NCBI GenBank assembly: GCA_026401035.1
Contig: JAPLNR010000065.1
Coordinates: 3,969-67,968, forward strand
Origin: Planctomycetia bacterium
GTDB taxonomy: Bacteria > Planctomycetota > Planctomycetia > Pirellulales > UBA1268
Direction of reading: 5' to 3'
DNA length: 64,000 bases
The translations under genes and the position numbers were made by a program. Below the pieces are notes generated by a model. It was given only the letters and a program-made list of their open reading frames with translations, did no database searches and had not been told where the DNA came from. Every line of letters starts with the position of its first letter. Position 1 is the first letter of the stretch. Of this stretch, positions 461 to 61,158 are shown in pieces.

Positions 461-500
461 CCGGGCATGTCTCAATCCTGGTCGGCACTGCATGTGCGTC

Positions 501-685
501 AACGCGCCCAACCCGGCTTCGGGCTACCCGTGCCCCGTCGCCGGACGTTCGCTGCGGGCATCCTGCCCTGCGCTCACTCGATGCTGCCTACGCTCCGCCA
601 TCCTGGCTGCGCCGACCAATCCGCCTAAGGCGGATCGGTGCCCGAGCAACGCCGGCTCTCGGGGCATGGGTAGCCCTTTGCCTCC
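501..685 (+). repeat. Family A hairpin repeat, copy A1
   Basis: Core ggacgttcgctgcgggcatcctgccctgcgctcactcgatgctg..cgctccgccatcctggctgcgc recurs at 10818-10973 and, reverse-complemented, at 10999-11153. Flanking inverted arms are gggctacccgtgccccg (521-537) and cggggcatgggtagccc (660-676). Confidence 0.8.
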
Positions 686-10817: not shown

Positions 10818-10973
10818 ACGCGCCCAACCGGCCCGGGGCTGCCTGTACCTTCTCGGCGGACGTTCGCTACGGACATCCTGTCCTTCGCTCACTGCATGTC
10901 CGCTTCGCTTCGGCATCCTGCCTGCGCTCGCTTCCATAGCCCGCCGAGAAGGTACAGGCAGCCCCGTGCCTCC
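10818..10973 (+). repeat. Family A hairpin repeat, copy A2
   Basis: Perfect 25-bp inverted arms ggggctgcctgtaccttctcggcgg (10835-10859) and ccgccgagaaggtacaggcagcccc (10941-10965) flank the family A core. Confidence 0.8.
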
Positions 10974-10998: not shown

Positions 10999-11153
10999 GG
11001 AGGCTTCGGGTGACCCGCGCCACGGGAGCCGGCGTTGCTGACAAGCGCAGCCAGGATGGCGGAGCGCAGTCAGCATCGAGTGAGCGCAGGGCAGGATGCC
11101 CGTAGCGAACGTCCGGCGACCGGGCGTGGGTGGCCCGAAGCCGGGTTGAGCGA
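10999..11153 (-). repeat. Family A hairpin repeat, copy A3 (inverted relative to A2)
   Basis: The reverse complement aligns almost base-for-base with A1, including caacccggcttcggg and the full core. Confidence 0.8.
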
Positions 11154-11162
11154 GTTGGGGTG

Positions 11163-17671: not shown

Positions 17672-18501
17672 ACCGTCCCGCCGCCGGCCTCGGCGACACG
17701 GTGCTGCTCGCCGACGTGGGAAACACGCGGATCAAACTGGCCGTCGTCAGCGACCACGGCCTCGACGCCACGGGTTTGCGGCGGCTGCCGACCGTAGGCC
17801 TCCGGCAGGATCTCGACAGCCACGCCTTCCGCCCCGAAAACCTCGAGCGCTGGCTCATGTCGGCCGCCCCGGGATCGGCGGTCGTGCTCGTGGCGAGCGT
17901 GCATGATGCGGCCGCGACGCGACTCGAGGCCGTTCTTGCCGCGGTGTCGGCCACGAGCCACCGCCCGCTGCGGCAGCGTCGCATCGGCCATGCCGATCTG
18001 CCGCTGTCGATCGGCCTCGACGAGCCGCACAAGACCGGCATCGACCGGCTCGCGGCAGCGGCAGCGGCGGCGATCGTGAAGACACCCGACCGCGGGGCGA
18101 TCATCGTCGACTGCGGCACGGCGGCCACCGTCGACATGCTCGCCGCAGACGGCACCTTTCTCGGCGGCGCGATCCTGCCCGGTCCGGCACTCATGGCCCG
18201 GGCCCTGGCCGACGGCACGAGCAAACTGCCCGCGGTGGCGGCGCTCGAACGGTCGGCGCCGCCGGCGATGCCCGGCCGCACCACCCACGAGGCGATCGCC
18301 GCAGGCATCGGCTGGGGCATCCATGGCGCGATCGCGAAACTCGTCGCCGAGGCCCGCGGCGTGCTCGGCTCTGATGCCGACGTGATTCTGACGGGCGGCT
18401 GGCGCGGCGCCGTCCGTGCGGCCCTGCCGGAAGCGATCGACCTGCCCGATCTCGTGCTCTGCGGCATCGCCCTCGCCGCCGAACGCGCCTGCGCCCGGTA
18501 G
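17668..18501 (+). CDS. coaX: type III pantothenate kinase
   Basis: ATGA overlap with obg. LLADVGNTRIKLAV, GIDRLAAA, VDCGTAATVD, TGGW. Confidence 0.85.
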   Translation: MNRPAAGLGDTVLLADVGNTRIKLAVVSDHGLDATGLRRLPTVGLRQDLDSHAFRPENLERWLMSAAPGSAVVLVASVHDAAATRLEAVLAAVSATSHRPLRQRRIGHADLPLSIGLDEPHKTGIDRLAAAAAAAIVKTPDRGAIIVDCGTAATVDMLAADGTFLGGAILPGPALMARALADGTSKLPAVAALERSAPPAMPGRTTHEAIAAGIGWGIHGAIAKLVAEARGVLGSDADVILTGGWRGAVRAALPEAIDLPDLVLCGIALAAERACAR

Positions 18502-18519
18502 GACAGGCTTCAGCCTGTC
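18502..18519. repeat. Family C palindromic hairpin gacaggcttcagcctgtc (copy C1), immediately after the coaX stop
   Basis: 7-bp stem with a 4-nt loop. The same motif occurs at 25211-25230 and 60822-60839, each just downstream of a stop codon. Confidence 0.7.
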
Positions 18520-31288: not shown

Positions 31289-32110
31289 ATGAATATGGCT
31301 GTGAAAGCATTGGCGGGACGCAAGGGCCTGCCTGAGAAAACCGGCCGCAAGGGCCTTCCTGAGAAAACCGGCCGCAAGGGCCTCTTGGGCCGCAAGGTCG
31401 GAATGACCCAGGTATTCGACGCCGACGGCACCGCGGTGCCGGTCACCGTGATCGAGGCTGGCCCATGCAGCGTCACCATGGTGCGTTCATCCGATCGCGA
31501 CGGCTACTCGGCCGTGCAGCTCGGATTTCTCGACAAGCCGCGCCGGCTCGCCAGCCGCTCGATCCGTGGCCAGGTGGCGAAGCTCGACAGCAAGCGGAGC
31601 AAGCGGCTGTCGGAGGCTGGTGTCACCCTCCTCTCGAAGGCTGATTGCGAGCCCAAGCGTTTTGTCCGCGAGTTTCGGGGCGTGTACGAGGGTGTCGAGG
31701 TGGGGCAGGTGCTCACCGTCGAGCTCTTCGAGGGCGTTGCGAAGGTCGACATTACCGGCACGTCCAAGGGGCGGGGCACGGCGGGCGTGATGAAGCGTCA
31801 CGGTTTCAAGGGCCAGCGTGCCAGCCACGGTGTCAAGAAAGTGCATCGCCATCAGGGCGGTACGGGCATGAACACCTCCCCGGGGCGTGTTTTCAAGGGC
31901 AAGCGGATGGCCGGCCGGATGGGCAACGAGCAGTCCACGATGCGAAACCTGAAGCTCGTGCGGATCGACAAGGATCACAATCTGCTGCTCGTGCGCGGCG
32001 CGATCCCGGGCCCGAATGGCTCGTACGTCGTGGTGCGTCAAACGAACGTGATCAAGCGGGTCGGTGGGCCGGCCACCCCGACCACCAAGAAAAAGGCTGG
32101 TGCGAAGTGA
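31289..32110 (+). CDS. rplC: 50S ribosomal protein L3 with a repeat-containing N-terminal extension
   Basis: KGLLGRKVGMTQVFD, GTSKGRGTAGVMKRHGF.G and a C-terminal VRGA.PG motif. Start is ambiguous (31271 GTG, 31289, 31295 or 31301). No start codon lies between the repeats and the conserved KGLLG. Confidence 0.85.
   Translation: MNMAVKALAGRKGLPEKTGRKGLPEKTGRKGLLGRKVGMTQVFDADGTAVPVTVIEAGPCSVTMVRSSDRDGYSAVQLGFLDKPRRLASRSIRGQVAKLDSKRSKRLSEAGVTLLSKADCEPKRFVREFRGVYEGVEVGQVLTVELFEGVAKVDITGTSKGRGTAGVMKRHGFKGQRASHGVKKVHRHQGGTGMNTSPGRVFKGKRMAGRMGNEQSTMRNLKLVRIDKDHNLLLVRGAIPGPNGSYVVVRQTNVIKRVGGPATPTTKKKAGAK
31319..31399 (+). repeat. 27-bp tandem repeat (2 full units plus a partial) at the 5' end of rplC, encoding GRKGLPEKT GRKGLPEKT GRKGLLGRK
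   Basis: Units start at 31319, 31346 and 31373: cgcaagggcct(g/t)cctgagaaaaccggc. Confidence 0.85.
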
Positions 32111-52213: not shown

Positions 52214-52355
52214 ATTTTCTCCGGCATGGCCTTCGCGCCGGTTCACGCTACACTCGAAAAGCAAGTTGCGCACTGCAGCCCGGCGGTGTCCAGAATCGCC
52301 AAGACCGGCTGGACAAGCTGGACCAGCAGGACTTCGAAGATCACGAGGGTCATTG

Positions 52356-54278
<1,923 letters not shown>

Positions 54279-54310
54279 CTCGACCGCTGCGCACGGCGGT
54301 CATCTCGCCC

Positions 54311-54704
54311 AACCCGGCTGCGGGACGGCAGAAGTCTCCTTCGCGTGGATATTTCACACAGGGGTCGTGCGGGAGCTCTGGCCTCAAACGGGCGAAATCT
54401 CCAATGCTCGTCGAGCTTCCGCCGATCCCTTCGCCTGGCCGCTGGAGGTTGAAACCCGGCTGCGGGACGGCGGAAGTCTCCTTCGCGTGGATATTTCGCA
54501 CAGGGGTCGTGCGGGAGCTCTGGCCTCAACCGTGCGAAATCTCCAATGCTCGTCGAGCTTCCGCCGATCCCTTCGCCTGGCCGCTGGAGGTTGAAACCCG
54601 GCTGCGGGACGGCAGAAGTCTCCTTCGCGTGGATATTTCGCCTGGCCTCAACCGGGCGAAATCTCCAATGCTCGTCGAGCTTCCGCCGATCCCTTCGCCT
54701 GGCC
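54311..54704 (+). repeat. Family B: three tandem copies of a 142-bp hairpin-forming unit (the third is shortened to ~110 bp)
   Basis: Unit starts at 54311, 54453 and 54595, a period of exactly 142 bp. Near-identical units fill most of the speA-nadE spacer. Confidence 0.9.
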
Positions 54705-54815
54705 TTACCGGCATGCCGGATGTGATCGGGCAGGCTGTGTATGCTTTTCTGCCGCCCCGGCGACGCGCACCAGCCGGGTACAGCGACAGGACACCAGCCT
54801 GCGGGCCGGTTCATC

Positions 54816-56804
54816 ATGCACTTGATTCATGTCGGCGGAATCGCCCTCAACCAGACGCCGCTCGATTGGAACGGTAACCGCGATCGGATCATTGCGGCGC
54901 TCGACGTGGCGCGGCAGCGCGGCCTGTCGGTCGTCTGCCTGCCAGAACTCTGCATCTCTGGCTATGGCTGCGAAGACGCCTTTCTTTCGCCCGGCGTGCA
55001 GAAACTCGCGTGGCAGGTGCTTGAGGAGATCGAACCGCACACCCGGGGGATGATCGTGGCGGTCGGGCTTCCGGTGCGGTTCGAAAGCGGCCTCTACGAC
55101 GCCGCCGCACTCGTCGTCGACGGCCGCGTAGTCGGGCTCGCCTGCAAGCAGCATCTGGCGGGGGAGGGAATCCATTATGAGCCGCGCTGGTTTCGGCCCT
55201 GGCAGTCGGGCCGCCGGGCGGTGCTCGCGATCGGCGGCCGCAGCGTGCCGATCGGCGACCTGCGGTTCGACTGCGGCGGCGTGCGGATCGGCTTCGAGAT
55301 CTGCGAGGACGCCTGGGTCGCGAACCGTCCGGGGGCGCACCTTGCCGCGCGGGGCGTCGACATCATTCTCAATCCCTCGGCGAGCCATTTCGCGTTTGCA
55401 AAGGACGAGGTGCGGCGCCGGTTCGTGCTCGAGGGCTCCCGCGCCTTCGGAACGGCCTATGTCTACGCAAATCTGCTCGGCAACGAGGCGGGCCGCTCGA
55501 TCTATGACGGCGGCACGCTGATCGCGGCGGCGGGACGGATGGCGGCCGTCGGCAGGCGGTTCGCCTTCGGCGATGCTCTCTGCACCTCCGCCGTGGTCGA
55601 TCTCGACGCGACCCGACTGGCTCAGTCGCGGCTGGCGATCGAGCCCCTGGTGCTGGACGAGGACGAGCGAGTGTTCGTCGCCTTTGCACCGCCGACGGTG
55701 GCCCCCCAGGGCGAATCGCCGGCCGAGTCGGGCCGCGACCTCTGGGAACAGGGCGAGCATGTGAAGGAGGAGGAGTTCTGTCGGGCCGTGGCCCTGGGGC
55801 TCTTCGACTACCTCCGCAAAAGCCGCTCGCGCGGGTTTGTCGTTTCCGCCAGCGGTGGCGCCGACTCCTCGGCCGTGGCCTGTCTGGTGGCACTGGCGGT
55901 GCGGTTCGCCGTGTGCGAAATGTCACTTGGCGACGTGTCCCGGCGGCTGGGACTGCCGGCGTCGAACGGCTTGGACGTGCGACAACTCATCCGGCGGGTG
56001 CTCGTCTGCGTCTACCAGGCAACGGCCAATTCGGGCCCGGTGACGCGGCAGGCCGCCCGGGGCCTCGCCGAGGCGCTTGGCGCCGAATTCCACGAGTTCG
56101 ACGTCGAGGCCATCGTGCGTCGCTACATCGAGATCGTGTCGACGGCGGTGGGAAGGCCGTTGGATTGGGAGCATGACGACGTCGCGCTCCAGAACATCCA
56201 GGCCCGGGTTCGCGCCCCGGGCGTCTGGATGCTCGCCAACATCCGCGGCGCATTGCTCGTCTCCACCAGCAACCGGTCCGAGGCTGCCGTTGGCTACGCC
56301 ACGATGGATGGCGACACCTCCGGCGGCATCGCCCCGATTGCCGGCATCGACAAGGCCTACCTCCGCCGCTGGCTCCTCTGGCTCGAACGCAGCGGGCCGG
56401 AAGGCATCGGCCCGATCCCGGCCCTCGCCGCGGTGAACGTGCAGGCACCGACGGCTGAACTGCGGCCGGGCAGTGCCGGCCAGACCGACGAGGGCGACCC
56501 CATGCCCTATGACCTACTCGACTGCATCGAGCGGTTCGCGATTCGCGACAAGCAGACGCCGCTTGAAGTCTGGCAGCGGCTGCAGTGCGACTTCCCGCAG
56601 CACCCGCCGCGGCAACTGGGCGTCTGGACGGAGCGCTTCTTCACGCTCTGGAGCCGCAACCAGTGGAAGCGTGAGCGGTACGCGCCGTCGTTTCACCTCG
56701 ACGACGAAAACCTCGACCCCAAGACCTGGTGCCGGTTCCCGATCCTTTCCGGCAACTTCGCCCGCGAACTCGCCGAACTCCGCGACGTGGTCGGTTTGGG
56801 CTAG
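54816..56804 (+). CDS. nadE: glutamine-dependent NAD+ synthetase (CN-hydrolase domain + NAD synthase domain)
   Basis: LPELCISGYGCED, FEICED.W (nitrilase-type), VVSASGGADSS (PP-loop). Confidence 0.9.
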   Translation: MHLIHVGGIALNQTPLDWNGNRDRIIAALDVARQRGLSVVCLPELCISGYGCEDAFLSPGVQKLAWQVLEEIEPHTRGMIVAVGLPVRFESGLYDAAALVVDGRVVGLACKQHLAGEGIHYEPRWFRPWQSGRRAVLAIGGRSVPIGDLRFDCGGVRIGFEICEDAWVANRPGAHLAARGVDIILNPSASHFAFAKDEVRRRFVLEGSRAFGTAYVYANLLGNEAGRSIYDGGTLIAAAGRMAAVGRRFAFGDALCTSAVVDLDATRLAQSRLAIEPLVLDEDERVFVAFAPPTVAPQGESPAESGRDLWEQGEHVKEEEFCRAVALGLFDYLRKSRSRGFVVSASGGADSSAVACLVALAVRFAVCEMSLGDVSRRLGLPASNGLDVRQLIRRVLVCVYQATANSGPVTRQAARGLAEALGAEFHEFDVEAIVRRYIEIVSTAVGRPLDWEHDDVALQNIQARVRAPGVWMLANIRGALLVSTSNRSEAAVGYATMDGDTSGGIAPIAGIDKAYLRRWLLWLERSGPEGIGPIPALAAVNVQAPTAELRPGSAGQTDEGDPMPYDLLDCIERFAIRDKQTPLEVWQRLQCDFPQHPPRQLGVWTERFFTLWSRNQWKRERYAPSFHLDDENLDPKTWCRFPILSGNFARELAELRDVVGLG

Positions 56805-60815: not shown

Positions 60816-60875
60816 GAGTAGGACAGGCTTCAGCCTGTCATGCCCTTGCCTGTGCTGATAACCCGCATTGGTCGC
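60816..60875. repeat. Family C element (copy C3): hairpin gacaggcttcagcctgtc at 60822-60839 plus a ~35-nt tail shared with copy C2
   Basis: Begins 48 nt after the pckA stop. The tail ..tgctga......attggtcgccggc matches 25231-25263. Confidence 0.65.
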
Positions 60876-60982
60876 CGGCGGCAGAAGTCTCCTTCGCGCT
60901 GCATTTTCTCCGCTGACGACCTACGGAGCTACCGACCCCAGAAGGTCGAAAATGCATGCGCTCGTCGAGCTTCCGCCGACCG
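60876..60982 (+). repeat. Family B hairpin repeat, solitary copy with a diverged distal stem
   Basis: ggcggcagaagtctccttcgcg and gctcgtcgagcttccgcc are shared with 54311-54704. The distal stem tgcattttc/gaaaatgca is perfectly complementary but differs from the other copies. Confidence 0.7.
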
Positions 60983-61158
60983 CCTCCTCAGAATCCTGAC
61001 CGATTTCTTCGGAAGCGAATCTAAAACCGCCTGTGAAAAAAGCGTCTACAGCTGCCCCCGGTGGTGGCCGGCGAGAGGCGAAGTTTTTGACTTGCCGGCC
61101 CGCCGTGATCTAGGATTAGGGGCCGTCGTCAGCCCCTCGCCTGCCTGGAGTCAAACCG

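Follow-up and report, generated by a model that had tools for sequence, protein, structure and literature searches.

Tandem palindromic units between speA and nadE of a Pirellulales genome belong to a dispersed family of long-hairpin repeats

The three tandem units that separate speA from nadE in this planctomycete genome are probably copies of a selfish, non-autonomous palindromic repeat of the MITE/ERIC/REPIN kind, non-coding and without a part in the control of nadE, which would have grown into an array by local tandem duplication. Their family, which had no name before and is called LH (long hairpin) here, consists of mobile palindromic repeats of intergenic DNA and is restricted to one planctomycete family. 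An nhmmer search iterated from one unit until convergence found ~104 LH copies, on both strands, in the 3.77-Mb draft genome (66% G+C), which bears out the suggestion of an earlier, sequence-only reading that the units could be a MITE/REP-like dispersed repeat. The window, i.e. the whole 64,000-nucleotide stretch of DNA that was analyzed, corresponds to C19:3969-67968 of this draft, and window positions are C19 coordinates minus 3968.

The tandem array in the speA-nadE spacer

The spacer runs from the stop codon of speA (biosynthetic arginine decarboxylase; 52266-54278, plus strand; NCBIfam NF003763, 902 bits) to the ATG of nadE (glutamine-dependent NAD+ synthase; 54816-56804, plus strand; NCBIfam NF010588 / TIGR00552), the start at 54816 agreeing with that in the relative L043. 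With the stop ending at 54278, the spacer measures 537 nt, the length given before. A head-to-tail array spans 54311-54704 on the plus strand, for which TRF reported a period of 142, 2.3 copies, 97% matches, 0 indels and a score of 634 at 54311-54641; direct reading of 54100-54900 showed that units 1 and 2 are full length and agreed with TRF on the period and on the unit starts at 54311, 54453 and 54595, exactly as the sequence-only reading had placed them.

Unit 1 (54311-54452, 142 nt) contains a hairpin core at 54322-54433, which is the nhmmer match C19:58290-58401, followed by a linker of ~12-14 nt. Unit 2 (54453-54594, 142 nt), recovered likewise by TRF, repeat search and nhmmer, is 97% identical to unit 1 and has its core at 54464-54575. 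Unit 3 (54595-54704), delimited by sequence and folding with a core at 54606-54697, is shortened to 110 nt, as had been noticed: an internal deletion of 20 nt (ACAGGGGTCGTGCGGGAGCT) removes one small inner hairpin, and the trailing 12-nt linker GCTGGAGGTTGA, which joins units 1-2 and 2-3, is gone. It is also the unit with the cleanest long hairpin. All three units have the arms reported earlier as conserved, GGC(A/G)GAAGTCTCCTTCGCG and GCTCGTCGAGCTTCCGCC.

No sigma-70-like promoter was found in the speA-nadE spacer and no terminator-like site in 54150-54900, and the right flanks of LH elements (CTCCTCAGC or CTTCGCC) have no T run that could supply the U-tract of an intrinsic terminator.

Pairwise identity among the units of the window array is 97-99%, against 81-93% to other copies of their subfamily (C). 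A second array at C40:1305-1727 has three units with a period of 141, a homologous linker and 92-96% internal identity, and arrays of 2-3 units also occur in relatives. The within-array identities and the homologous linker of the second array fit the arrival of a unit with its linker followed by amplification in place: one subfamily-C unit plus linker would have arrived in the speA-nadE spacer, tandem duplication by slippage or unequal recombination would then have multiplied it, and one unit would later have lost 20 nt.

Anatomy of the LH family

The LH core is ~110 nt long, and the element with its conserved flanks measures 125-155 nt. Near-full-length copies (91 of the 104) were sorted into subfamilies, which differ in outer stem, distal stem and apical modules. 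Common to them are two near-invariant arms, CGGCAGAAGTC(T/G)C... and ...AATGCTC(G/C)TCGAGCTTCCGCCGA, which pair with each other through a helix holding conserved mismatches and bulges. The outer stem is variable in sequence and keeps its complementarity, while the apical part is swappable and carries zero to three small hairpin modules, including optional insertions of 23-30 nt. Conserved flanks occur in most subfamilies (left GCATTGGTCGCCGG..., right ...CCGGCTCCTCAGCATCGGGAG); those of the window array, which is of subfamily C, are CCGGCTGCGGGA ... TCCCTTCGCCTGGCC. A search for the empty target palindrome, with the flanks joined without the core, returned nothing except one deletion derivative, and the flanks are therefore a component of LH itself.

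The window holds exactly five LH copies, the number first counted. Besides the three array units there is a subfamily-B copy at 60877-60984 on the plus strand (nhmmer C19:64845-64952; also detected among direct repeats), with the distal stem CTGCATTTTC / GAAAATGCA, and a copy at 2156-2266 on the minus strand (nhmmer C19:6124-6234; inverted repeats, gene overlap). The latter lies wholly within a long ORF, of the rlmKL type according to the sequence-only reading, and has a compensated distal stem of its own, GGATCTTTCGCC / GGCGAAAGCTCC. In these two copies and in unit 3 the letters of the distal stems are as first quoted.

Fold, covariation and the question of the strand

All units fold into long imperfect hairpins, as had been described, and unit 3 stands out against its shuffles (-56.3 kcal/mol, z = -6.05; 0/200 shuffles as stable). 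Unit 1 does not stand out: its fold is unremarkable taken on its own (z = -1.83), so the case for structure rests on comparison across the family. To this end, a 33-pair structure comprising the outer, core and distal stems was drawn up on an alignment of 62 diverse LH copies (A1). Paired cells amount to 79.9%, compared with 71.7% in shuffles and 30-45% when the pairing partners are slid, which halves the pairing. Cells in which both positions have changed number 189 vs 76±7 in shuffled alignments, a value reached by none of 500 shuffles, and covariation exceeds all 500 in the outer and distal stems. Pairs with the strongest signal are 9:173 (GC 45, AU 12), 10:172 (AU 39, GC 14), 62:147, 64:145, 66:143 and 67:142, and the basal stem was independently predicted by RNAalifold. 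The compensatory stem changes that had been proposed from the five window copies are therefore real, and the hairpin structure is selected at some level.

Covarying stems directly upstream of nadE, on its coding strand, are what a strand-specific structured RNA would give, be it a small RNA gene present in triplicate or, in cis, a leader or riboswitch at the 5′ end of nadE. Cells with G·U and A·C in the LH stems are balanced (90 vs 104, or 50 vs 56 when two fixed positions are left aside), and this balance, together with the random orientation relative to genes, gives no indication of selection for the RNA of one particular strand. Fold energies are similar on both strands, those of the reverse strand often being slightly more stable in a signal that is inconsistent. 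Rfam yielded 0 matches in the whole window at gathering thresholds, and at E <= 10 the spacer matched only mir-138 and dinG at 14-15 bits, a chance level.

Several defects in the LH stems are themselves conserved: A·C at 15:166, C·C at 54:158, G·U at 60:151 and G·A at 61:150, together with a one-base bulge (T or G) beside GAAGTC/GAGC and a bulged A after GCCG. Such defects matter only in a folded single strand, be it DNA during copying or RNA.

Genomic placement

Genes were called with a crude codon-usage caller (2633 genes, 85.6% coding), by which 84 of the 104 LH copies are intergenic and 20 genic, although some of the genic copies may overlap spurious ORFs. This supplies the genome-wide count of copies and contexts that the sequence-only reading had called for. 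With each LH-occupied spacer counted once (n = 67), convergent spacers are enriched for LH (30/67 vs ~20% expected, p = 4e-6) and divergent spacers depleted (4/67, p = 0.002); the copies lie mostly downstream of genes. Within spacers between tandem genes, 15 copies share the strand of the genes and 18 do not (p = 0.73). Orientation is thus random with respect to genes, an outcome which that reading had named as speaking against its own proposal.

The placement is the one typical of REP, ERIC and MITE elements, in which 3′ ends are tolerated, promoter regions avoided and orientation is indifferent, and it is unlike that of leader RNAs. LH copies accumulate wherever insertion is tolerated: downstream of genes and above all between convergent ones. 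Any effect of the array on speA or nadE would be incidental, for example an RNA hairpin that stabilizes the 3′ end of the speA transcript or impedes read-through.

Taxonomic range and insertion polymorphism

An exact 23-mer of the right arm, AATGCTCSTCGAGCTTCCGCCGA, occurs in more than 107 stretches, at the least, of a collection of species-representative genomes, and among the matches listed it comes without exception from MAGs of freshwater Pirellulales or Planctomycetaceae, a small number of which are labeled Kuenenia. The label 'Candidatus Kuenenia' is found on LH-bearing MAGs that are syntenic with this Pirellulales genome (L015, L023, L028, L033, L037, L041, L042 and L103) and looks like a taxonomic mislabel. 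With a covariance model built on the 62 diverse copies (R1), LH was detected in 15/15 congeneric genomes, at 4 to at least 85 copies each (with no more than 86 candidates scored per genome, the high counts are lower bounds), in 6/9 other genera of the family and in 0/16 other Pirellulales families.

Relatives are 75-88% identical to this genome in coding DNA and syntenic with it, so orthologous spacers can be compared. At 65 of 81 orthologous sites filled by LH in relatives this genome is empty, and in 14 of 28 reverse comparisons, at sites filled here, the relative is empty, the speA-nadE spacer being one of these cases. In a congener, the orthologous spacer between speA and nadE (L043:376-618, 243 nt) holds no LH copy, which makes the array a lineage-specific arrival and not a conserved part of nadE control. 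The proposal that the array could form a nadE 5′ leader fails on this spacer and on the placement of the family, mostly downstream of genes and without orientation bias.

Nine orthologous sites are filled in both genomes compared. Their arms are 88-89% identical, their flanks ~60% and their interiors 48%, and the type of interior often differs. The wholesale differences between interiors are read as re-insertion or gene conversion and not as vertical conservation. The better conservation of arms than of flanks could reflect selection at the level of the host and not selfish behavior alone, and the pattern at these nine sites leaves some room for such selection on the LH arms.

Association with GTAG REPs and the search for a mobilizer

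A second repeat family accompanies LH in this genome. It is a GTAG-tagged REP, GTAG-GACAGGC-TT(C/T)A-GCCTGTC, with 284 copies (60818-60839 and 18498-18519 are examples in the window), whose adjacent pairs are convergent in 32/35 cases, as in REPIN doublets. It occurs in 16/16 genomes of the genus, at 33-601 copies, and is absent from the other genera searched. The copy at 60818-60839 (GTAG GACAGGC TTCA GCCTGTC, plus strand, detected among direct repeats) lies 38 nt upstream of the LH copy at 60877-60984 in the same orientation, and the two form a composite unit of REP and long hairpin. Such a REP lies 25-104 nt upstream in 24 of the 91 near-full-length LH copies, most often at 38 or 48 nt, with 24 pairs in the same orientation and 0 in the opposite one. 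Copy numbers of the two repeats within the genus correlate weakly (rho = 0.52, p = 0.04). LH is also present in six other genera that do not have this REP sequence, so it is independent of this particular REP. At one convergent gene pair shared with a relative, this genome has two tandem composites of LH, linker and REP with a period of 198 nt (C78:30045-30545), where the relative carries just one REP, oppositely oriented (L087:3532-3563).

LH itself differs from a REPIN. The GTAG/CGTC tag is absent from the LH arms in the alignment and belongs to a different, short repeat, GTAG-GACAGGC-N4-GCCTGTC. When the right arm is reverse-complemented, it agrees with the left arm only over CGGC-GAAG-CTC, ~12/20 nt, an asymmetry that is conserved across genera, so that LH is not made of two inverted copies of the same REP.

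Terminal inverted repeats of the kind found in MITEs are present, in that 80% of cells are paired in the outer stem and the arms CGGCAGAAG.../...CTTCCGCCG; complementarity is incomplete, and the most conserved parts are subterminal, not terminal. Insertion polymorphism between related genomes, another mark of MITEs, was likewise observed. A parent element with the same ends was not found: in this genome (G000) and 107 relative loci, no pair of left and right arms lies 200-6000 nt apart except where separate copies combine. Across 203 LH copies, no direct repeats longer than 3 nt that could be target-site duplications flank the stem boundaries, the true ends of the element not being fixable from comparisons; an excess of 2-nt direct repeats there is explained by the conserved flanks. 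Filled and empty sites are too diverged (~60% intergenic identity) to fix the ends, and empty sites often hold other repeats.

Searches with PF01797 covered this genome and 25 relatives, and the LH profile was then run over the 1.5-kb flanks of each match. This 94.5%-complete genome has a single Y1_Tnp match, a 94-aa remnant at C82:113677-113856 (L108:1504-1788) with the motif CGYCLMPNHWHMLLWP, which looks most like a REP-associated tyrosine transposase (RAYT). Y1_Tnp/RAYT-like genes are common in relatives, and LH occurred within 1.5 kb of 0/20 such loci in this genome and its relatives. One clear RAYT arrangement was seen in relative G009 (L123), where a 184-aa RAYT-like ORF has clusters of the GTAG REP, not LH, on both sides. 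Genomes with a Y1_Tnp match hold more LH (Mann-Whitney p = 0.04), a difference that is confounded by MAG completeness and by the limit of 86 candidates scored per genome.

What is recognized when LH is copied is probably the hairpin, marked by fixed and asymmetric mismatches, most likely as single-stranded DNA. The leading candidate for the mobilizer would be a RAYT-type HUH transposase acting in trans, because a quarter of LH copies follow a GTAG REP with fixed spacing and orientation; mobilization of LH by a RAYT in trans may reasonably be inferred.

Comparison with known repeat families

In architecture LH matches the ERIC/IRU elements of enterobacteria and their YPAL relatives. ERIC/IRU elements are imperfect palindromes of ~127 bp. 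LH belongs to the same size class (~110-150 nt) and likewise forms a single long imperfect hairpin; it is extragenic in either orientation and protein-free, and its subfamilies and size variants arise through internal insertions and deletions at fixed points. It differs in forming head-to-tail tandem arrays with a conserved linker and in being often fused to a GTAG REP. Given the different phylum, sequence similarity is not expected, and the resemblance is one of kind only, which gives no ground for calling LH an ERIC element.

REPINs are said by Bertels and Rainey to be mobilized by RAYT tyrosine (HUH) transposases. Like REPINs and GTAG REPs, LH is hairpin-forming, extragenic, high in copy number and restricted to a family or genus, and this genome holds a true GTAG REP family and a RAYT remnant, with LH joined to the REP in fixed orientation. 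Unlike them, LH has no GTAG or CGTC tag, is 3-5x as long as a REP and has arms that match each other over only ~12 nt; no RAYT gene is flanked by LH, and LH occurs in genera without this REP. GTAG/CGTC REPs are known from Planctomycetes (Di Nocera et al. 2013, PMC3733652), and the same work, which names no element like LH, reports dimers of REPs inside longer palindromes as well as RAYT-linked TIR families (PMC3733652).

LH further resembles MITEs such as the Correia/NEMIS elements of Neisseria (100-155 bp), in being short and non-coding with terminal inverted repeats, and in its internal-deletion subfamilies, its presence/absence polymorphism and its position beside genes with possible effects on transcripts. 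A MITE is a non-autonomous derivative of a DDE transposon, and its terminal repeats are normally its most conserved part. LH, in contrast, has an outer stem that varies with compensation, and it shows neither a detectable target-site duplication (its ends being unfixed) nor a parent IS with matching ends. With the Rickettsia palindromic elements (RPE) it shares the character of a palindromic repeat of ~100-150 nt that can sit inside genes, as the copy at 2156-2266 does; it differs from them in being overwhelmingly intergenic (84/104) and in lineage and sequence.

Alternative readings

The alternative that survives best is that LH, whatever its origin, is used by the host as an RNA hairpin, a 3′-end element of mRNAs that works in either orientation. 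Its copies could shield transcripts from exonucleases, terminate or attenuate transcription without a U-tract, or be cut by RNase III, and the speA-nadE array could insulate or couple the two genes. Roles of this kind for mRNA hairpins have been reported for REP, ERIC and Correia elements. The preference for positions downstream of genes and between convergent ones is consistent with it, as is the better conservation of arms than of flanks at orthologous filled sites, and use in two orientations would fit the similar fold energies of both strands and the balance of G·U and A·C. It sits poorly with a copy number that ranges ~20-fold among congeners, with the three genera of the family that have no LH and with a relative whose orthologous speA-nadE spacer manages without a copy; the spacer here contains neither a U-tract nor a terminator-like site. 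We regard host use as unlikely to be the main account, and it does not exclude the mobile-element reading, with which it is compatible.

A more specific idea starts from the core hairpin, invariant across genera with its fixed asymmetric defects, which would be the putative substrate of a dedicated enzyme or host factor that recognizes single strands. LH might, for instance, represent a new RAYT-driven composite class, in which the single GTAG REP 38 or 48 nt upstream is the handle and the long hairpin the cargo or second end, or alternatively a domesticated mRNA 3′-end element specific to this planctomycete family. This idea is speculative, and we give it a low probability.

Selection could also act on double-stranded DNA, the near-invariant core (palindromic GCTC-NNN-GAGC / CTCGAG) being kept for a host DNA-binding protein, perhaps a nucleoid-, topology- or replication-associated factor by analogy with BIME, IHF and gyrase. 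A 23-nt core that is invariant across genera while the remainder varies, the lack of strand bias and the conserved arms at orthologous sites would suit such a site. The conserved mismatches and bulges (A·C, G·A, C·C, bulged T and A) count only in self-folded strands and not in a duplex, compensation in the outer stem is unneeded for duplex binding, and LH copy numbers are variable and sometimes zero, all of which makes a duplex binding site very unlikely.

The strand-specific structured RNA introduced above, despite its covarying stems and its place upstream of nadE, is close to refuted: the relative's speA-nadE spacer has no LH copy, ~100 copies lie beside unrelated genes in both orientations instead of keeping a fixed position and orientation upstream of one gene at orthologous loci, the 90 G·U against 104 A·C cells show no strand asymmetry, Rfam gives no match for it even at E <= 10, and the spacer has no promoter-like site.

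Implications for annotation and further repeats

As a mobile repeat family, LH and its accompanying GTAG REP fill many intergenic spacers in freshwater Pirellulales MAGs, and they matter mostly for annotation hygiene. LH breaks assemblies at its repeats and creates spurious ORFs, and it can mimic a conserved structured RNA because its stems covary; once recognized, it will not be miscalled as a riboswitch or small RNA. The family also offers a tractable case of how long-hairpin repeats are copied without an evident cognate transposase, and its tandem arrays could act as strain markers in time-series metagenomes from lakes.

The intergenic spacers of this genome are mosaics of several repeat types. 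Small modules adjoin LH and REP, among them the hairpin CAGCATCGGGAGTCGCAGGTGCTG, which lies 3′ of subfamily A/B copies (e.g. C18:28600-28625), and the motif CAATCCTGTTCGGCACGGC, a further recurring module beside both repeats (near window position ~60775). A different repeat of ~105-113 nt, unrelated to LH, occurs three times in the window (500-612, 10823-10927 and 11045-11157), with two copies inverted at 92% complementarity 10.4 kb apart and a local inverted pair 115 nt apart. A tandem repeat of 27 nt at 31319-31383 comprises 2.4 copies of CGCAAGGGCCTGCCTGAGAAAACCGGC with 97% matches.
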